Source of the DNA: an uncultured bacterium
GTDB lineage: Bacteria; Zhuqueibacterota; QNDG01; DTFT01
Direction: 5' to 3'
Assembly (NCBI GenBank): GCA_963736115.1
Contig: CAVTNR010000008.1
Location: forward strand, 64,001-128,000
DNA length: 64,000 nucleotides
Shown piece after piece: positions 4,199-14,024 of the stretch. A program made the translations under genes and the position numbers. Every line of letters starts with the position of its first letter. The first letter of the stretch is position 1. The notes under the pieces are model-generated. The model did no database searches and was not told the DNA's origin. It worked only from the letters and a program-made list of their open reading frames with translations.

Positions 4199-6417
4199 TT
4201 ACTTCATTAAAATCATTTTCTTGGATAATGTTCTGCCTTTCGAATGAAGGCGGCATACGTAGACTCCGGACTGTAGTTCTTCCCCTGCATCACTTAATCC
4301 GTTCCATGTCCTGGCATGAAACCCTGCCGGCAGATCTACTGCGGACCAAAGTCCTCACCCGGCGTCCAAACGCGTTGAAAACCGTGACTTCGACAGGTCC
4401 GGCAGAAGCCAGGCTGAATCGGACGACGGTTGAGGAATTAAAGGGATTCGGGTAATTGGCGTATAATCCGAAGGATTCCGGCTCAAGTCCGGGAATGCCT
4501 GAATCCGGAAGAGAAGGATGCGATCTCCTCATCCATCCATTCGAACCGGGCCGCCAGCCAGTACTTCAGGTAATTCACTTCGTCGCTGTATGTGTGGAAG
4601 GATTCAAAAATTCTTGGAACCGGCCAGAATCCCTCTCCGCGCTCTCCGGGCCCGGGCCACATCCCGAAATTCCGGGCCTGGGCTTCGGTCAGCGTGTCCG
4701 CCATGGCGTCGACCAGCGCGAGCACGTTTTCCGTGGAGAGAACGGTTTTTCTCAGGGACTGCCAGCGGACGCGGATGCGGCTCCGAAAAGCCGGGTCCTC
4801 CAGCAGTTTTTTCCAGAAGAAGGGCGGCGGGCTGCCGTCCGCCATGGCCTGCGGATGAGAAGTCAGATTGTCTATCTGCCAGTCCCCGGGGCCTTCCGCT
4901 CCGTAATAATCCGCGTTGCCGATGCCCAGATCCGCGTCCCACACCGGGCCCGCGGCCAGCCTGCCGCCGCGGCTGTCCCTCTCCTTGGAAAAGAACGCGC
5001 TGAGCCTGTAGCCGTCCACGTTCTTGCCGATTTCGTTGAGAATGAAGTGGTCGGTGAATGCGTCCGCGTCGATGAAGCGGCCGTAACCGTTCACCGGGTC
5101 GGCCGCGTCCGGGCCGTTCATCATCGTTTCGAAATCGCGGATGAAGCCGCTGATGTAGGTTTTCTGCTCCGGACGGATGGCGTCGTCCGCGGGGTCGTGG
5201 TACTGATAGGAAATGCGCTGGAAGGCGCCCGGCCACGGCGGAACCGCGGACATGAAAAAATCATTTCCGGTTTTGTCGATCTTCACGATGTATCCGCCGG
5301 TGAGCGCGTCTCCTGAAATATCGTCCGCGTTCAATTCAGCGACTGCCACGCGGTTCCGGTCCCGCTTGATTTTTTCCATCAGCACGTACACGCCCCGGGG
5401 CCGGCCGTTCAGAACCAGCTCGCAGAACCGCGTGCGGCTGGCGTACCGGCCCATGCGGATGGAAAGCCGATACAGGAGCGCGTTCCGCATCAGGGAGCGG
5501 TCCACGTACGGGCCGTAGAGAACCCAGTCGTTCTCCCGTGGGAATCCGAGCAGGGGCACGTTCCGGCTCGTTCCGTCCGTGTTCCGGATCTCGAGATTGT
5601 AGGATTTTTTCGGATACCCGGCCGAGCTCTGGCCGCGGATCTCCATGCCCGCGGGCCCGGAATACGCGTTCGGCGGATCCGTGGACATGTTCCGTTCTCC
5701 CGGGCCGTGGTCGATGACGGACAGATCCACGGTCGTGCGCTGTTCCGGGCTCAGCACGCGGCCGCGGGTCCGGACGCAGACCAGGGGCAGGTTCGAGGAC
5801 ACCGGGGGAGGAAGCGTCGTGTCCAGTTCAAGGGAAACCCAGAGCAGGAAGTCCGGATCGCCCGGCGCCGCGTTGAAGCCCTGCAGGGCCAGGAGGTTCG
5901 TTCCGACGGCCAGATCCGGGACCACTGAGGTGATGTCGAATACGCGCGGTTCCGCGCTGGCCTCGTGGCCGGCCGTCGCCCTGGAGTTGAACCGGGCGTT
6001 CGGCGGCGCGTTCGCGTCCGCGATTCTCCGTCCGTTGATGAAGGCAATGAAACCGTCGTCGTAACGGATCTTGAGCGTCAGCGACTGCGACGCGGCGACC
6101 ATGGCCTCAGTGACGGTAAAGAGGGCGCGCATCATCGCAGTCCGGTCCGCGCCGAGCGCATCCGTTTTCATCGCGGCCCCGAGGTCCAGCCCGATCCACG
6201 GTCCATAGAGGCCGGAGTCGTCGTAACCCGCGCCCCCCAAAGCGGCCGTCCACGCGGCGTCGTCGAAAGCCGCATTCTGGCGCCACGCGGAATTCACGGT
6301 CGTGAGCGGCACGAGAATCCGTTTCGGGCCGTCTCCGGGGACGAGCGGAACGATTTGCGACCGTCCCGCGGAACCGAACAGGAGAAAGAGAGAGACGGTT
6401 CCGATAAGAATCCGCAT
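4199..6417 (-). CDS. Secreted CotH kinase family protein with C-terminal T9SS/FlgD-type sorting domain (indels near 4500 and 4330)
   Basis: Signal peptide; IRGQSS..YPKKSY, DRSLMRN, GVYVLMEKIK and GPVWDAD CotH motifs. Other frames continue with NYPNPFNSSTVVRF..VRTL and WNGLSDAGEELQSGVYVCRLHSKGRTLSKKMILMK-stop at 4199. Confidence 0.85.
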
Positions 6418-6507
6418 GCACACTCCAGGGCTTGAGATCCGCCGCCGGCGCATCGGGGCGGGAACGCGGTCGAAGCTTCGTCCTCCGGCCGCTGGGGCGG
6501 TCAGTCG

Positions 6508-6715
6508 ATCGGGCTGTCAGAAGCCCGCTTACCGTCTAAAATAGAATACCTGCAATTTGGTGAATGCGGGCTTCTGACAGCTCCGACGGGTCTGTTCCCC
6601 CGGCTTCGCCGGACCAAGCAATGAGATTTGTTCATTATTGAAGGCCCGCCTTTTATCTTCAATAATTCAAAAATATAATCGCTTGATCCCGCGAAGCGGG
6701 GCGGTGCCCTTCATC
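6508..6715 (+). repeat. Composite palindromic intergenic element, copy 1 of 4; carries two micro-element inserts (6600-6644, 6656-6700)
   Basis: ATCGGGCTGTCAGAAGCCCGC...GCGGGCTTCTGACAGCTCCGA inverted repeat; aligns by eye with 32774, 36247 and 62272. Confidence 0.85.
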
Positions 6716-6751
6716 CCATTTTCCTTTAATCCCCAGCTTCTTACGGCAGAG

Positions 6752-8694
6752 TCATCTAGTCCGAACGATTTTTCGGGTCCGGACCGAACGGTCCGTTTTC
6801 AGGACGAGCAGGTACACGCCGGCCGGGAGGTCTCCGGCCGTGAACGAAACACTGCGGCCGCCTTCGGCCGCGGATCCGGAACGGAGCGTGCGGACCCTGC
6901 GACCCAGACAGTCGTACAGGATCAGCGAGACGGTGCCCGCTTCCGGGAGCGTCCAGGCGACCGATGCGGAGCCGGAACGGGATTTGGGTGGATGTCCATT
7001 CCCGGTTCCGCCGTCGATCCGGTCCCGCGGTGCGCGGACGGACGAGGCCGTGTCAGGCGCCGGCCAGGTTCTTCCCGTCCAGGTCCCAGGCTCCGTTCGG
7101 CGCGGGAGTCCCATGTGGCAGTAGCGCGATGACGGCCAGGTCCGCGGTCTTAGCGGCCTCGGATGCGTCGAAATCAAGCGTGCCGCACCGTGTCGTTCAC
7201 GGCGATCCAGGCAGCGCCGGACCCGGAGAGGGCGCCGTCCGCGGCATGCGGCCCTGAATCCCGCGCCACGGTCCCGGATCCGTCGTTCATGCGCCAGGCC
7301 GCGGCCAGGGCAGCGGAGAAGGGATGGGCGTCATCATCCGGCCCAAGTTACCTCCGGTTTCCACCGGCCGATACATCCACTCCCGCAGAACCGAATCCGG
7401 CAGGGCCGCGGACCAGACCCTCACCTCGCTGACTGTCGACGGCCGCGAAATCCGGACGGCCGGCCGCGGCGTCCTGTCCGATCGCGATTCCGGCTGTTCC
7501 GTCCACGCTTCCCACCGCGGACCAGTCCGCGGCCGCGGTGCGGATTCCGTCCTGCATCAGGACGAGGCGGCCGCCCCGGTCGAAAACCGCGGCGATGTGG
7601 TGCCAGCGTCCGTCCGCGATCACGGGCCCGGAGACATTCGTCCGGACGGAGCCGTCCGCCGCGTTCACCCGCCATTTGCCCTCGTCGATGAGGTCGATGG
7701 AGAATCCCCGGTTGCGGTCGGACGATCCGTCCTTGTTGGAAATCAGAACCGGCCGGCCCGACCACCCGTTCGTGCGCACGCAGCATTCGATCGTGAAACC
7801 GGCGTCCGCGCCGAAACGGAACGCGGGCCGGTCCGGCGCGGAGACAAAGCCGCTCCGGCCGTCCAGCCGTATCGCATATTCCGGAACTCGCAGGCTGTCC
7901 GTCTCCCAGCGGTGCGGGTTCTCCCGCGGCCGTGTGCCGCCGCCGGAGACGATGAAGAAGGTCCGCATCTCCTCGAGCGTGGACCCGCCGTGATGCGTGC
8001 CGAGCCCCCCGTGGTCCGTGAGCGCGATGACCATCCAGTCCTCATCCGCGTATCCCGGCCTGGAACGCATCGCGGCCAGCACTTCGCCGACACGGCCGTC
8101 CGCGGTTTCGATGGCGTTCCGGTAAGCCATGTTGTCCGGATCGAATCCGGACGCGTGGCCTTCGGCGTCGATGGCGCCGAGTTGGACGAAGAGAGCGGCG
8201 GGATCCCCGTGGACCAGCAGGTCCACCGCGCGGTCGACCGTTCGTTCATCGGACCAGTCCCCGGCAGAGACATCCGCGCCGTGGGGCATGGCGGTGTTCA
8301 GGTCCGGCCAGTAGACGAACCATCCGGACGAAAAATCCGGATGCGCGTCCTTCAGCCTCCGGAACAGCATGGGAAAGAGATCGAACCGGCTGTTTGAGAA
8401 GGTGTTGTCCGTGACCCCGTGTTTGCCGTTCCAGACTCCGGTGAACACGGAGGACCAGCAGGGGCCGCTTTTTGTCGGCGGCCGGGAGAGGGCCCACCAG
8501 GAGAAGGCGCTCCCTTCGGCCAGGCCGGACAGATGAGGCGTAGAGCATAACAGCAGGGCGTCGGGTCTGCACCCGTCCACGCCGAGGATGAGCAGGCGGG
8601 ACGCGGCCGCGGGCGCCGGCGACAGTGCGGCGGCAAGCAGAACGACCGCCACGCCGCGAATGCAGGCGGATCCGATTTTTCTGAACCGGTTCAT
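6752..8694 (-). CDS. Secreted alkaline phosphatase/nucleotide pyrophosphatase-phosphodiesterase family protein with LamG domain and T9SS-type C-terminus (several indels 7000-7430)
   Basis: LILGVDGCRPD, TKSGPCWSS, IDAEGH and TDHGG..HGG motifs; LamG DGRWHHIAAVFDR; C-terminus ILYDCLGRRVRTL..LPAGVYLLVL..TRKIV. Confidence 0.82.
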
Positions 8695-8845
8695 GCGTAC
8701 AAGATACGAACGGGACGGAACCGAATCAAGGAGGATCTGGCGAGCCGAAATGATTTTTCGCTTGTTTCGGTGCATAGAGTCACTTATTTTATACAAGTTC
8801 CGAGGGCATTCCGCGGTTCACCCAGGATGAGGCTTCCATCCGGCC

Positions 8846-9877
8846 ATGAACGGCCACGCGTACACCGACATCGACCTGTGCTCCGTCATTCCGGCCCTTT
8901 GCGAGGGGTCGGTATCGGAGCGTGACACCGCGGCTTTCGCGAGGGTCTGCGTGCGGCTTTCCATCGCGACCCTGATGTTCCTGCAGTCGAGGGGTTACCG
9001 GATCATGGATGAGGCGGGAGGCGGCCCGTCGGTTGAGGATACGGCCGCGGATGCGGTGGCGGATCTCTTCGAGCGGGACGCCGCAGGGGAATACGTCCGG
9101 TTCCGCCGTTATTTCAGCCCGCACCTTGAAAAGACCGCATCGAACGCCGAATGGCTCGTGCTGCTTCGGCGGCTGGTGACGCGGCGCGTTCAGCAGGCCC
9201 TGTCGCGCGTGTTCCGGGAACGCGATCCCGAGGGTGCCCGGATCCGCCGCGGCCTGAAAATCGCCGCGCTGAAACACGGCCGGTGGAAACTCGAAACCGC
9301 ATTCGGCAGGCAGTGGATCAGGCTCGATCACGGCATTGTCCGCCCGGGAACCGGCGGCCTTTCCCTGCTGCAGGACGGACACCTCTCCGCTTTGGCCTGC
9401 GGCCGTTTCAATCCCCGCGACACTCTGCCCGTGATCCTCGACAAGCTTTCCGATTTCCTGATCGAGCATCCTGAACTGACGGCCCGAATCGAACTGAACG
9501 ACGCGGTGCGGCTCGTGCGCGGTTACCGGAAGGGCGCGGAACGGGCCGATGTGCCGCCGCCCTCCGAATCGCCTCTGTCTCCGGACCTGATCCAGGCGAT
9601 CGAGTCCGGACGCGACAGCCTGTTCCTGAAAATCCAAAGGGATTACAGGGCCAAAGGGAAACTCGATGAGAAAGAAGCTGAGGCTTTCCGGCTGGCCCTT
9701 TCGGACATGGTGGAGGATGTGCTCGCGGGCGACCCGCTGGGGCCTTATTTCGAGTATCTCCGCGTCCGTTTAAAGGGTTTGGATGAAGAACGCTACCGGA
9801 CCCAACTCCGTACAAAATTTGAATATATGGCCAAATTGCTGAAGCGGAAAATTGAAAGAGCGGTTTCTATTTTCTGA
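8846..9877 (+). CDS. Divergent ECF-like RNA polymerase sigma factor (putative)
   Basis: Region-2-like segments VEDTAADAVADLF and WLVLLRRLVTRRVQQAL; basic helical C-terminus; lies directly upstream of a zinc anti-sigma gene. Motif match is by eye only. Confidence 0.55.
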   Translation: MNGHAYTDIDLCSVIPALCEGSVSERDTAAFARVCVRLSIATLMFLQSRGYRIMDEAGGGPSVEDTAADAVADLFERDAAGEYVRFRRYFSPHLEKTASNAEWLVLLRRLVTRRVQQALSRVFRERDPEGARIRRGLKIAALKHGRWKLETAFGRQWIRLDHGIVRPGTGGLSLLQDGHLSALACGRFNPRDTLPVILDKLSDFLIEHPELTARIELNDAVRLVRGYRKGAERADVPPPSESPLSPDLIQAIESGRDSLFLKIQRDYRAKGKLDEKEAEAFRLALSDMVEDVLAGDPLGPYFEYLRVRLKGLDEERYRTQLRTKFEYMAKLLKRKIERAVSIF

Positions 9878-10056: not shown

Positions 10057-10111
10057 GCTTCGCGGGCTCGGCATTTCGGACCTACAAGTACTCAATTGTT
10101 ATAATTCAGAA

Positions 10112-10198
10112 TCCGGAACCTGGAACCCAGAACCTGGAACCCAGAACCCGAACGATCTCGACCATGAACTATGAACCATGAACTATGAACTATGAACT
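10112..10198 (+). repeat. Heptamer tandem repeats (GGAACCT/AGAACCC type, then ATGAACT type) running into the start codon at 10192
   Basis: ccggaacc tggaacc cagaacc tggaacc cagaacc, then atgaact atgaacc atgaact atgaact atgaact. Confidence 0.85.
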
Positions 10199-11067
10199 TG
10201 CAGGAAATGTTAAACTGCCCAGATAAAAACCGTATCGAGCTCTTCCTGCTCGGCGGCGTGACCGACGCTGCCGAGGCCGCACGGATTCGCTCGCACCTTT
10301 CCGCGTGCCCGGCCTGCAGGCTGGCCGCGGAAGAGGCCGAAGCCTTTCACCGGGTGGCCGGATCCATTCCCTCCGAACAGATCGACCGGATGGTCCGCCG
10401 GGTGCTGTCCGGAGCCGCGGTCGGGCCGGCCGTCGCAGGACGCGTTCTCGAGCTCAAACCGATGGCCCTGCCGGGGCATTCTCCACGCCGCACGCTCCTC
10501 GCCGCGGATCACGGCCCGACTGGCCGTTTCGAGCCGGTACAGACCTATGCCAATGTCGAGGCTGACCTCGTCGCCAGGCTCCTCAGGGACAATGCGTCCC
10601 GGGAACTGTCGCTCTATCTGGTCGAATCCGGGGGAGAGCCGGCCGCGAACCGCGTTCTCGAGATCGAGGGCCAGGAGGAACAATACGCCGCGGACGAGAC
10701 CGGCCGCGTGGAGCTTCAGGGTTTGTCCGAAGATGAACTGAAGGGGCGGACCCTCCGCATCCGCTCCTCCATCGCGTTTTTCGATCTGGCGCCGGTGCAG
10801 GATCTCCGCGAGCGCATCCGTTTTGAAGGTCATTACGCGCTGCGGAACGCGGAATTCGACGAAATCCGCATTGAGACCGAGGAGGCGGAGGGCCGCACAC
10901 TCACGCGCATCCGGATTGAAAAGATACGCGGAGCCGGGGCGACGGCTGTCGTGGGCGTGAGTGTTTCGAGGCGCGGCGACTCTCCGCTGACCTCGCCCGT
11001 GGTGCGGGGCGCGGCTGTGTTCGAAGAGCTGGACCCGGAGCGGATCCTGAAGATCCGGATTTACTGA
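10192..11067 (+). CDS. Soluble zinc-binding anti-sigma (ZAS/zf-HC2) domain protein with beta-rich C-terminal domains
   Basis: N-terminal Cys followed by HLSACPAC (HxxxCxxC); no TM helix; linker contains RRTLLAAD. Confidence 0.75.
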   Translation: MNLQEMLNCPDKNRIELFLLGGVTDAAEAARIRSHLSACPACRLAAEEAEAFHRVAGSIPSEQIDRMVRRVLSGAAVGPAVAGRVLELKPMALPGHSPRRTLLAADHGPTGRFEPVQTYANVEADLVARLLRDNASRELSLYLVESGGEPAANRVLEIEGQEEQYAADETGRVELQGLSEDELKGRTLRIRSSIAFFDLAPVQDLRERIRFEGHYALRNAEFDEIRIETEEAEGRTLTRIRIEKIRGAGATAVVGVSVSRRGDSPLTSPVVRGAAVFEELDPERILKIRIY

Positions 11068-11120
11068 ACGGTTCCGGCCGACCGGCATCCGGAACCGGGG
11101 CCCGGGGAAACCATGAACGC

Positions 11121-13427
11121 ATGAAAACCATCGAACTCGAACAGGCGCGCTGCCGCCTGGCGGAACGCCTGGCCGGACCCGCTTCCGGCCATGAAAAACT
11201 GACGTTCATCGTCCGCTTTTTCAGGGCCGCCTCCCCGCAATTCAGCGTGGACGCCCTCCGATCGTACCATCTGGAGTTCTCCTCCCCCTTTTTGAAAACA
11301 GCTTCGGCCGCGGCGCTCGCCAACCGGCCTCCCGGATTTCTGCTGAACACGCTCGAATTGGTCCGCGTGTACCGCGAGCGGTTCGCGGACGACACCGCGG
11401 CCGACGATCTCGATCGCGCGGAGCGCGCCTGCCGGCTGGCTTTGCTGGAGACAGCCGTCGTGCTCGGCGAATGGGGGCCGGCCCGCGAATCGCTCGAAGC
11501 CCTGTCCGGCGAACGCCTGCCTGCGGAACCCGCGGACACGGAGGGTTCAGCGTCGCATTATCCCCTTGAAGCCTGCGGGAAACTGGCCGCGAGTCTGATC
11601 GGGCCCTGTCCCGCTGCGGCCGGCATTGTGCAATCCGTCGCGGACCGCTGGTCTTCGGAATTCGGGGGACAGACCGGGGACCGGCTGTGGCTTCTGTTCG
11701 CGCAGAAGGCGGATGAGAACGGGCCGGCGCATTCGGAGCCGGACTGCGGCTTCCTGATCGCGGCCGGACTCCGGACACGGGTCCGGCTCCACCCCGACGC
11801 AGCGGACGATACGATACGGCTGAACAACGACTGGGTGTCCCGATCGGAGCCGTTCCACAGGCTCATCCGGGACGCTTTGACCTCCATGCGGCCCATACTG
11901 GCGAAAACCGGGTATGCGGCGCCTTCGGATCAGCACGGCCACTTTCTGTTCGCCCTGTCCGAAAGGGAGGCGGCGTTTTACGGCAGGTCCCTGGAAGCGC
12001 CCCTGGCCCTTCTGGCCGCGGGCGGGCTGGTGAACGGTTACTACGGCCGGCCGCTCGTCCTGTTCCCAAATAGTACGGCCGTGACCGGCGGCGTGGACGG
12101 AGAAGGCCGCATTCTGCCCGTGGACAAGGACGGGTTGAAGGCCAAGCTTCATGCGGCTTTTTTCTCGCCCCTCAGACGCGTCGTGGTGCCGTGGCCGAAT
12201 CTCCAGGAAGCCGTTTCCGTCATCGAGAAGCTCCGGATTTCCCATCCGAACCGCAGACTCGATCTGCAGAGCGCGGATACGCTCGAAGCGCTCTGGAACG
12301 ACCGCAATGTCGCTGAGGCCGGACGAGTCACGACAGCGGTCAGGCTGACCGCGGGCCTGAGGCGGAACCGGAATCGGATCGCCTGGTCCGCGGCCTGGGC
12401 CGGCATTCTGCTCACCAGCGCCCTTCTGCTTCTGCCCCTGCTATGGCGGGACAGGAATCCCGCCTCGATCGACGTTTCCGGATCGGTGCTCGTGGCGAGG
12501 AGCGCGGGAGGCCGGGAATTATGGAAGTACGATTTCGGTGTCCCGCTGACGCGAAACCGTTATGCGGATCCTTCTCTCCGGGTTCGCGTTACGGATGCGG
12601 ACGGCGACGGCAGGCGGGAGGTGCTGTTCGGAGTCTATGAATCGACCGATCTGGGCGCGCTGAATGGATCGATTTTCCTTTTCAGCGCGGATGGGGATGT
12701 CCGTCTCCGCCTGAAAACGGGGCGGGCCATGAAATTCGGCGGTGCGCTCTACGAGGACCATTACCGCGTGGCGTTCGCGGACGCGGTCGATCTGGACGGG
12801 GACGGAGTGAAGGAGATTGTGTCGATTTCCTTCCATTATCCCGATTATCCCTGCTGCGTGAACGTCTGGAGCCTGTCCGGGGAGAAGCTGGGCGAGTACT
12901 GGCATTCCGGACAGCTGGAAAAGGCTGAGTACATTGACGCGGACGGGGACGGGGTCCGGGAACTGTTCCTGGCCGGTCAGAACAATGAATACCGCTGTGC
13001 CGTACTGGCCGTTCTCAAACCGCCCCGTCTGACCGGGGCCTCGCCCCAGACCCCGGCCGGCCATTACCGGGCGGAAGGGCTCGAAACAGGCGGGGAGATG
13101 CAGTATGTCCGTTTTCCGAAGAGCGTCCTAAGTGAACTGGCCTTGAACCGGGACACGGCTCTACATGCGGAGGAAAACAACGGACGAATCCGCGTGGGTC
13201 TGGCGAATCCGGCCGCATCGGCCGGCGGCACGCAATCTCATTTTATCTATTACGTTTTCGATCCGCGGTTCCGCCTTCTCGACGTGGACGTCGGGGACTG
13301 TTATTTCAGCAGGGTGTTTGAACTCAGGGGAAGGCCCCTGACCGATTCGGAACTGTCCAGGCCCGTCCTCCGTTTTGACGGGAAAGGATGGTCGCAAATT
13401 GAACAGGTTCGGGCCGGGTTGGAATAA
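11121..13427 (+). CDS. Lon (S16)-type protease domain + single TM helix + FG-GAP/VCBS-like repeat ectodomain; no AAA+ module
   Basis: FYGRSLEAPLAL (Ser290) and AVTGGVDGEGRILPVDKDGLKAKLHAA (Lys342) parallel DGPSAG and [25 protein letters not shown] of the Lon in this window. TM helix at about aa 420-442 after RRNRNR; three DxDGDG motifs. Confidence 0.8.
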   Translation: MKTIELEQARCRLAERLAGPASGHEKLTFIVRFFRAASPQFSVDALRSYHLEFSSPFLKTASAAALANRPPGFLLNTLELVRVYRERFADDTAADDLDRAERACRLALLETAVVLGEWGPARESLEALSGERLPAEPADTEGSASHYPLEACGKLAASLIGPCPAAAGIVQSVADRWSSEFGGQTGDRLWLLFAQKADENGPAHSEPDCGFLIAAGLRTRVRLHPDAADDTIRLNNDWVSRSEPFHRLIRDALTSMRPILAKTGYAAPSDQHGHFLFALSEREAAFYGRSLEAPLALLAAGGLVNGYYGRPLVLFPNSTAVTGGVDGEGRILPVDKDGLKAKLHAAFFSPLRRVVVPWPNLQEAVSVIEKLRISHPNRRLDLQSADTLEALWNDRNVAEAGRVTTAVRLTAGLRRNRNRIAWSAAWAGILLTSALLLLPLLWRDRNPASIDVSGSVLVARSAGGRELWKYDFGVPLTRNRYADPSLRVRVTDADGDGRREVLFGVYESTDLGALNGSIFLFSADGDVRLRLKTGRAMKFGGALYEDHYRVAFADAVDLDGDGVKEIVSISFHYPDYPCCVNVWSLSGEKLGEYWHSGQLEKAEYIDADGDGVRELFLAGQNNEYRCAVLAVLKPPRLTGASPQTPAGHYRAEGLETGGEMQYVRFPKSVLSELALNRDTALHAEENNGRIRVGLANPAASAGGTQSHFIYYVFDPRFRLLDVDVGDCYFSRVFELRGRPLTDSELSRPVLRFDGKGWSQIEQVRAGLE

Positions 13428-13459
13428 CCGGTTCCCATCCGGACTGCGGCACGGACCCG

Positions 13460-13481
13460 GGGCCCTTGAGGGCCTTTTTTT
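13460..13481 (+). terminator. Possible intrinsic terminator after the Lon-TM gene
   Basis: GGCCC-TTGA-GGGCC followed by a T run. Confidence 0.5.
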
Positions 13482-13733
13482 ATTGGATTTTCTGCGGCAA
13501 GCCGGGATGTTGCTATGTAAAGGTATCGGCGGGAGCAATCATACGGTCAATCAGGTTGACAAAGCCGAATGTCCATTTACCGGAATTTGAATTTTCACCC
13601 CCCCGGGCCCCCTCCCTTGCACCAGGGAGGGGGCGGGCCGGGGGATGCGGAATCGAAAAGCAGATCCGGCCATCCGGCCAGGAAAGGGGACAGGGAGCCG
13701 GCTGAGCCGGTCGGAGGCCGCCCCGGATCCCGG

Positions 13734-14024
13734 ATGATGCATTTCGAGATGGAACTGCCGGGTGTGCTCAACTGGAAATTCAGCACACTCGATGAGGCCG
13801 TGAGCCGGACCCTTCGGCTGATGATCCGGTCGGTGCCGGTCGCGAGGATTTACAACCTGAATGAGGACGGTGAAAGGGAGGGAATTTCCCTGTGGCTGGA
13901 AAAATGCGGTGTCGCGTGCCCGTCCTGCCTCGAGGATGAAGCCGTGGTCTTGATGTCCGGCATACCGGAGCAGTACGATGAACTGGCGGTGTGCCGGAAA
14001 TGCCAGTGCTCGTTTAAATTATAG
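13734..14024 (+). CDS. Small hypothetical protein with two CxxC pairs (probable zinc ribbon)
   Basis: CPSC...CRKC; GGAGG upstream; followed by a terminator. The ORF-track extension to 13569 looks non-coding. Confidence 0.6.
   Translation: MMHFEMELPGVLNWKFSTLDEAVSRTLRLMIRSVPVARIYNLNEDGEREGISLWLEKCGVACPSCLEDEAVVLMSGIPEQYDELAVCRKCQCSFKL

Follow-up and report, generated by a model that had tools for sequence, protein, structure and literature searches.

A conserved Leu-Ala-Ala motif in the linker of a zinc anti-sigma-like protein encoded beside a Lon-type membrane protease: a candidate cleavage site and masked ClpXP degron

The window analysed in this work is a stretch of 64,000 nucleotides (nt) from an uncultured bacterium of the phylum Zhuqueibacterota (GenBank assembly GCA_963736115.1, contig CAVTNR010000008.1, positions 64,001 to 128,000 of the forward strand). 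It carries a module of three genes on the plus strand, encoding a 343-amino-acid (aa) protein of an unnamed family, a soluble 291-aa zinc anti-sigma-like protein and a membrane protein of 768 aa that contains a Lon-type domain without an ATPase. The element under study is the tripeptide Leu-Ala-Ala (LAA) at residues 103-105 of the anti-sigma-like protein, interpreted in a first-pass annotation as a cryptic degron that a cut after A105 would uncover for the protease ClpXP. The features of the first two genes were as follows:

8846..9877, plus strand: 343-aa protein of an unnamed family, presumed partner of the anti-sigma-like protein (open reading frame list; position of a sigma factor)
10192..11067, plus strand: 291-aa soluble zinc anti-sigma-like protein (open reading frame list, zf-HC2 match, AlphaFold2 model)
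Within that protein, plus strand, modelled domain plan: anti-sigma domain, residues ~8-75; strand, 85-91; loop, 92-112; beta-sandwiches, 113-193 and 193-291
10294..10317, plus strand: H35-x3-C39-x2-C42 zinc motif (HLSACPAC; Pfam and alignment)
10465..10527, plus strand: variable 21-residue loop (residues 92-112) bearing LAA, modelled without secondary structure and varying in sequence and length
10498..10506, plus strand: L103-A104-A105, proposed P3-P1 residues and post-cut C-terminal degron (conservation in 162 sequences)

The translation of the open reading frame at 10192-11064 (plus strand) holds GHSPRRTLLAADHGPTGRF, with L103 encoded by nt 10498-10500, A104 by 10501-10503 and A105 by 10504-10506; the LAA that the first-pass annotation had reported in a linker at 10480-10520 was thus right in its residues and its coordinates. 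The stretch around the motif is GHSPRRTLLAADHGPTG, and the linker reads PRRTL-L103-A104-A105-DHG. This numbering presumes the ATG at 10192. In the alignment, the position of M6 was the start in most homologues, and therefore the true start may be the ATG at 10207 and LAA may in fact be residues 98-100.

Both the zinc motif and the family-model match of a zinc-binding anti-sigma (ZAS) protein were found in the 291-aa protein. Its only Pfam match at E up to 0.1 was zf-HC2 (PF13490) at residues 22-43 (E 1.1e-5, 25.9 bits, cut-off 22.2), and no hydrophobic segment was present: the best 19-residue Kyte-Doolittle mean was 1.05, short of a transmembrane segment of the RseA type. An AlphaFold2 model built on a 13-sequence alignment was unusable (predicted local distance difference test score, pLDDT, of 41.4) and was superseded by a model built on 141 sequences (mean pLDDT 90.1, predicted template modelling score 0.71). 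In this model helices run through residue 75, followed by a strand (85-91), coil (92-112) and beta strands (113-290), and the annotation's placing of the linker between the zinc domain (zf-HC2, residues 22-43) and beta-rich C-terminal domains (strands 113-290) holds. LAA lies 28 residues past the last helix of the anti-sigma domain; the loop block had a pLDDT of 65-68 against the model mean of 90.1, and the motif is, as modelled, in the least confident, loop-like part of the protein.

A Foldseek search of the whole model against the PDB gave no match at E ≤ 0.001. By domain, VIA-align superposed residues 8-71 on anti-sigma domains whose structures were solved together with their ECF sigma factors, those of RslA (3hug_B, Z 6.6, root-mean-square deviation 2.9, 62 of 62 residues aligned), MucA (8z6g, Z 5.7), RsiW (5wuq, Z 5.5) and RseA (1or7, Z 5.3), and ChrR was also matched. 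Residues 111-193 resembled Ig/SOD-like sandwiches and residues 193-291 TRAF/MATH-like domains (Z 6.3). All these Z values were below 8 and are domain-level matches, those to anti-sigma domains being consistent and domain-wide. No CalpT chain was among the 50 VIA-align matches listed.

The presence of LAA in this lone sequence is not beyond chance. Ala makes up 12% of the protein and Leu 11%; AA dipeptides occur eight times and LAA a second time, at residues 44-46, and in 20,000 shuffles LAA occurred 0.46 times per protein, at least once in 38% of shuffled proteins and within a 21-residue window in 3%. What raises the motif above chance is its conservation across the family. In 12 relatives found by a word-indexed search (43-90% identity), R100, L102, L103, A104 and A105 were invariant, and the residues right before and after this block differed. 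A profile search of 1.84 billion cluster representatives (50% identity) returned 321 proteins at E ≤ 0.001, of which the best 150 were examined, and a MAFFT alignment of the window protein with 161 relatives (162 sequences) was compiled. Position 103 was L in 138 of these sequences, M in 13 and I in 4; position 104 was A in 153 and position 105 was A in 158. In the flanks (residues 92-101 and 108-111) the commonest residue reached at most 48 of 162, and LAA was followed by D in 87 of the 162 sequences and by Q, E, K, M or A in the others.

After removal of 11 close relatives (151 sequences), A105 was present in 147, the highest count of any residue column; A104 was found in 142, and position 103, where M also occurs, was L in 127. 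Of the zinc ligands, H35 was present in 144, C39 in 143 and C42 in 144, with 6-7 of the remainder being gaps. A104 and A105 are thus kept about as well as the zinc ligands in this alignment, whereas the loop around them changes freely, and the annotation's prediction that LAA would be conserved within an otherwise variable linker passed clearly. In the 141-sequence alignment, with a mean column identity of ~23%, only H35, C39, C42, A104, A105, D168 and G171 reached at least 90%. The exceptions to LAA were 10 sequences and one fragment, which either carry LSA, LEA, MHA, LVA or LRA or belong to the short forms. Across 16 loci the motif was written with five Leu codons and all four Ala codons, a synonymous turnover which indicates selection at the protein level.

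The third gene of the module encodes the candidate cutting enzyme, with these features:

11121..13427, plus strand: 768-aa membrane protein with an N-terminal helical docking domain, an ATPase-less Lon-type (S16-like) domain, one transmembrane helix and an FG-GAP/beta-propeller ectodomain
11121..11396, plus strand: residues 1-92, predicted docking surface for the anti-sigma-like protein (complex prediction)
11988..11990, plus strand: S290, candidate catalytic serine of a G-x-S motif, in the part of the protein that aligns with Lon proteolytic domains
12144..12146, plus strand: K342, candidate catalytic lysine (inside the Pfam Lon_C match, residues 319-372)
12378..12449, plus strand: one transmembrane helix spanning residues 420-443 (highest Kyte-Doolittle mean over 19 residues, 1.94, at 423)
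12450..13424, plus strand: extracytoplasmic FG-GAP-type propeller, presumed sensor (FG-GAP_3, E 4.4e-6, 27.6 bits, cut-off 26.9)

In an alignment of 18 members of the protease family, G288, S290, T322 and G323 were invariant, as was E7 (18 of 18); S290 was present in 18 of 18 and K342 in all 17 sequences reaching that column, the 18th being truncated. The family profile matched Lon proteolytic domains in the PDB (1z0e, E 1e-4; 7p6u, 2e-3; 4fwg, 8e-3; 1rr9, 0.016) together with beta-propellers (YesW and designed propellers). The Lon_C match of the window protein itself had an E value of 0.046 (13.7 bits, cut-off 21.1), FG-GAP_3 was found in 16 of 18 members and PADLOC CARF_LON in 9 of 18 (best 0.0014), and no ATPase family was among the Pfam matches of the members. 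The 768-aa protein therefore has, like CalpL, a Ser-Lys Lon-type domain without an AAA+ module. The hydrophobic block of the transmembrane helix is retained across the family, with RRNRNR on its N-terminal side; one such helix preceded by these residues places the Lon-type domain in the cytoplasm and the propeller outside.

The motif and the protease gene occurred together. Of 167 genomes of the phylum, 97 had a match to the anti-sigma-like profile at E ≤ 1e-8, a tally in which many matches cover the zinc domain only and which includes an unpublished genome (G158) otherwise unused; a metagenome scan with a narrow alignment gave 4 loci. In 40 fetched regions, whose open reading frames were searched with hidden Markov models of the three families, long forms of the anti-sigma-like protein (273-316 aa, window included) were encoded downstream of the 343-like gene and upstream of the protease gene in all 16 distinct loci. 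Among 25 short-form loci (193-224 aa, plus one fragment), the 343-like gene was found in 24 and the protease in none. Each of the 17 alignment rows that have a protease neighbour (one locus being represented twice) carried LAA at the corresponding site, against 0 of 24 short forms without the protease. On a tree of the 343-like proteins this split takes a single change (support 93/95), and on the protease-linked side, with branches of up to 2-3 changes per site, LAA was invariant. The short forms (L052-L056, L071-L090) constitute a sister family that still has its 343-aa neighbour, its zinc domain and the first of the two beta-sandwiches; the second sandwich is missing, as are the loop with LAA and the gene for the protease. 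One short form has VAA at the aligned site (L089:1953-2552); no protease or 343-like neighbour was detected on its 7.8-kb contig.

A complex of protease residues 1-430 with residues 80-291 of the anti-sigma-like protein was predicted from custom alignments. The docking score was 0.68 (0.68, 0.68 and 0.67 in separate runs) versus 0.00 in all three controls; 116 of 157 solved complexes score this high, as do 2 of 215 mismatched pairs, and such a pass may reflect likeness to a solved complex, of which CalpL-CalpT10 is one, though no sequence likeness was found to it. At least 73% of the contacts were common to the runs, and the pLDDT of the partner was at least 75. The predicted interface joins protease residues 2-8, 11, 14, 40-56 and 92 with residues 91, 93-95 and 110-172 of the anti-sigma-like protein. 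The annotation's proposal that the C-terminal domains dock the protease is supported to this extent, the predicted docking falling on the first beta-sandwich.

The degradation machinery needed for a degron is encoded in the same genome: clpX was detected with 600 bits (cut-off 371) and adjoins clpP. The single transfer-messenger RNA (tmRNA) detected (genome G000, contig C8:164513-164872, outside the window) encodes the tag GNNYSYAMAA, labelled "not identified" by ARAGORN, and in five other genomes bearing the module the tags end in YAVAA, YALAA (three genomes) and YAMAA. The variation from L to M at position 103 is the same alternation as in these tag ends. Since the tags end in -A[LMV]AA with the same L/M alternation, the LAA motif corresponds to the tag end of the phylum. 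The predicted new C-terminus, -LLAA, matches the ssrA tag ends of the window's own genome (-YAMAA) and of its relatives; it differs from an ssrA tag in that the motif is internal, and silent until cut, and in that the upstream adaptor-binding part of the tag is absent.

The 343-aa protein encoded upstream had no Pfam, NCBIfam or PADLOC match, and all 37 homologues found were unnamed or "hypothetical". Its family profile matched nothing in the PDB below E 0.04 and no sigma factor, and hhalign of the family (21, then 58 sequences) against the genome's own extracytoplasmic function (ECF) sigma factors gave probabilities of 0.1-0.2. Weak leads came from the Atlas (Sigma70_r2 in 19% of the cluster at 0.85, Sigma70_r4 in 32% at 0.84), and apart from these every attempt to show that the protein is a sigma factor was negative. 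The "sigma-bound fragment" of the first-pass annotation was therefore an assumption which the adjacent partner, resembling no sigma factor by Pfam, PDB profile or ECF profile comparison, did not bear out; as a cognate ECF sigma partner belongs to the definition of a ZAS protein and was not found, the 291-aa protein is termed "anti-sigma-like" here. The 343-aa family keeps strong motifs of its own (A-x-D-x-I-A-x-L-F, R-E-R-D-P-E-G-A-K and F-E-Y-L-V-K) and pairs with a bona fide zinc anti-sigma domain.

The surroundings of the module included the following:

4483-8796, minus strand: CotH kinase-family protein (E 2.7e-54), and a fusion of a type I phosphodiesterase with a LamG/concanavalin-like domain
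13459..13486, plus strand: terminator-like hairpin and T-run, a possible operon end, 32 nt past the stop codon of the protease gene
13569-14024: 151-aa open reading frame just past the hairpin, ending in a CxxC...CxxC-like cysteine pattern

The CotH kinase and phosphodiesterase/LamG proteins upstream look secreted or surface-located, and the flanking genes also include open reading frames for membrane proteins; the 151-aa open reading frame had no Pfam, NCBIfam or PADLOC match. Promoter and terminator scans gave counts no higher than in shuffles (5 terminator-like sites versus a shuffle mean of 5.4 in the scanned region, with no excess), and only the position of the hairpin is suggestive. The gap between the 343-aa gene and the anti-sigma-like gene was unusually long (314 nt; in the more distant loci it was mostly well below 300 nt) and carries two tandem heptamer arrays, CAGAACC repeated 6.9 times (10107-10153) and ATGAACT repeated 5 times (10164-10198). 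The second array reaches into the annotated start codon of the anti-sigma-like gene, the ATG at 10192 being contained in the repeat run. A 292-aa antisense open reading frame (10210-11088, minus strand) spans the entire anti-sigma-like gene and is no gene candidate, being expected at 62% G+C.

Among the closest known systems is CalpL-CalpT-CalpS of type III CRISPR. In it, CCaCalpL cuts CalpT within 202-LAAA, between A204 and A205, and the fragments stay bound; the new end, PEDTLQLAA, acts as a C-degron in E. coli and is abolished by A204D (bioRxiv 10.1101/2024.05.08.593097). This is the precedent as invoked in the first-pass annotation, which had described it correctly. Removal of the cut anti-sigma fragments by ClpXP is the accepted model for CalpT23 and for RseA/MucA (PMC11417357, PMC7593790), cleaved RseA ending in VAA and being degraded by ClpXP (PMC7593790).

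The window module resembles CalpL-CalpT-CalpS in its gene set: a Lon-type Ser/Lys protease that lacks an ATPase and has a docking domain at its N-terminus is encoded next to a soluble protein of anti-sigma type and that protein's partner. The predicted docking, on the N-domain of the protease and away from its own active site, also recalls CalpL, in which this arrangement prompted the proposal of cutting in trans, with different CalpL subunits for docking and catalysis (bioRxiv 10.1101/2024.05.08.593097). The components themselves differ. CalpL has a C-terminal SAVED sensor binding cA4, whereas no SAVED match was found here and a transmembrane helix and FG-GAP propeller take its place; the signal of CalpL is a cyclic nucleotide, whereas here it would come from outside the cell; and CalpS is an ECF-like sigma factor, whereas the 343-aa partner is not recognisably a sigma factor. 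CalpT is described as a MazF-like domain joined to DUF2080 (bioRxiv 10.1101/2024.05.08.593097), whereas the present substrate is composed of zf-HC2 and two beta-sandwiches, a difference which ruled out the anti-sigma-like protein as a CalpT homologue.

The modelled N-domain superposes on those of RseA, MucA, RsiW and RslA (Z 5.3-6.6), and the module as proposed is like RseA in joining an anti-sigma-domain protein, a cytoplasmic N-terminal fragment ending in xAA and removal by ClpXP that would free the bound factor. The RseA fragment has 108 residues, comparable to ~105 here. RseA is a membrane protein cut successively by two membrane proteases, whereas a soluble protein and a single cytoplasmic cut by one sensor-protease are proposed here. 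A further parallel is BlaR1/MecR1-BlaI/MecI, in which BlaR1 is a zinc metalloprotease with a penicillin-binding sensor and the target is a DNA-binding repressor; we know of no degron step in that system. The parallel lies in a membrane protein that senses the outside and whose cytoplasmic protease domain inactivates a soluble transcription regulator (PMC7593790). The three-gene module would work like CalpL/T/S and RseA and is a member of neither family. No publication describing a membrane Lon-type protease paired with a zf-HC2 protein, or its LAA site, emerged from full-text literature searches.

The most likely mechanism, to which we give an even chance of being right, is that the protease cuts after A105 and so presents ClpXP with a tail resembling that of ssrA. 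At rest, the N-terminal anti-sigma domain would hold the 343-aa partner, and the first beta-sandwich would dock the anti-sigma-like protein onto the N-terminal domain of the protease. When the propeller is triggered outside the cell, the Lon-type domain would cut the exposed loop after A105, probably through the gathering of protease molecules, one cutting the substrate docked on another, by analogy with CalpL, which has to oligomerise. The N-terminal fragment would then end in ...RRTLLAA-COOH, copying the phylum's tmRNA tag end (-A[LMV]AA), and ClpXP would unfold and degrade it, freeing the 343-aa partner. As a whole, the interpretation of the first-pass annotation is supported in part: the conserved LAA, the protease gene, the clpP-clpX pair, the tag and the predicted docking fit it, and the sigma partner does not.

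Several observations weigh against this mechanism. The confident contacts of the complex model include neither LAA (103-105) nor S290/K342, so that the model gives docking and not a substrate in the active site. The interface residues R129 and G171 are equally invariant in the short forms that have no protease, and their candidacy as a protease-specific surface was rejected on finding them invariant in long and short forms alike. Because the tree takes a single change, the split in LAA and protease represents one evolutionary event and not 40 independent observations, and the 16-versus-24 covariation was dropped as statistical evidence. Lon_C matched 6 of 18 protease members (best E 0.0028), under the Pfam cut-off in every member, and the PDB matches listed for the protease family profile included no CalpL chain. 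A few long forms have LSA, LEA, LVA or LRA, which would be poorer ClpX tails, and the specificity of ClpX in this phylum is assumed from that of E. coli.

Three other explanations of the motif were considered. LAA might be the recognition and cleavage site of a switch in which the cut alone matters, the partner being released or relocated without ClpXP and the likeness to the ssrA tail arising only from the protease's preference for small hydrophobic P1-P3 residues. The evidence from conservation, from the loop, from gene linkage and from docking serves this explanation equally well, and it is favoured by the pattern of substitution: A105, the would-be P1 residue, is best kept and A104 tolerates S, E, V and R in a few members, a pattern closer to that of a protease subsite than to that of a strict ClpX tail. 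It is, however, harder to reconcile with CalpT, the sole studied analogue, in which the cleaved fragments remain associated and release depends on the degron, and with the strand (85-91) before the loop and the beta domain after it, which may hold the halves to each other once a single nick is made. The tmRNA tag ends of the phylum are likewise matched by the motif, L/M variation included, and we regard a switch by cutting alone as improbable.

To much the same degree it seems unlikely that LAA stays uncut and acts as a binding motif, either as a pseudo-substrate loop lying in or gating the active site or as a contact for the 343-aa partner or another factor, the protease acting on something else. 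Conserved short motifs in flexible loops are often binding sites, and both ends of the loop (residues 91, 93-95 and 110-115) lie at the protease N-domain in the complex model. Against this, short forms lacking the motif still pair with the 343-aa partner, so that it is not needed for that partnership; three residues, L-A-A, offer little binding surface; and the precedents with the same motif are cleavage-plus-degron sites. That LAA has no special role, being a chance tripeptide of an Ala/Leu-rich protein or a packing element of the fold, agrees with the 0.46 occurrences expected from composition and with the second LAA at 44-46. The conservation data bring this last explanation near to refutation, and it is very improbable: the motif is retained in 94-97% of sequences at ~23% mean identity, between variable flanks and through synonymous codon turnover, and it sits in a stretch without structure, where a model that is confident elsewhere is at its least certain.

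The exposure of an xAA tail by anti-sigma cleavage for removal by ClpXP is already established in RseA and CalpT, and the same logic is indicated here in a large unnamed family (321 clusters at 50% identity match the profile); in this family sensor and cutting enzyme would be combined in one membrane protein, and the partner matches no named family. The LAA site turns a vague "signals by proteolysis" into something testable, through the position of the cut, the end of the product, a two-residue mutant and the dependence on one host protease. We tentatively propose, as a possibility that falls short of an even chance, that LAA is a masked ssrA-tag end in a one-step transmembrane switch, in which a propeller outside the cell governs an ATPase-less Lon-type protease within it; one cut would hand the soluble substrate to ClpXP and release a 343-aa factor that falls outside the known sigma and regulator families. 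If true, the module would be a widespread, unstudied cellular counterpart to CalpL/T/S whose output protein is of a new class, and its confirmation would suggest a wider coupling of Lon-type regulatory proteases and ClpXP through LAA.

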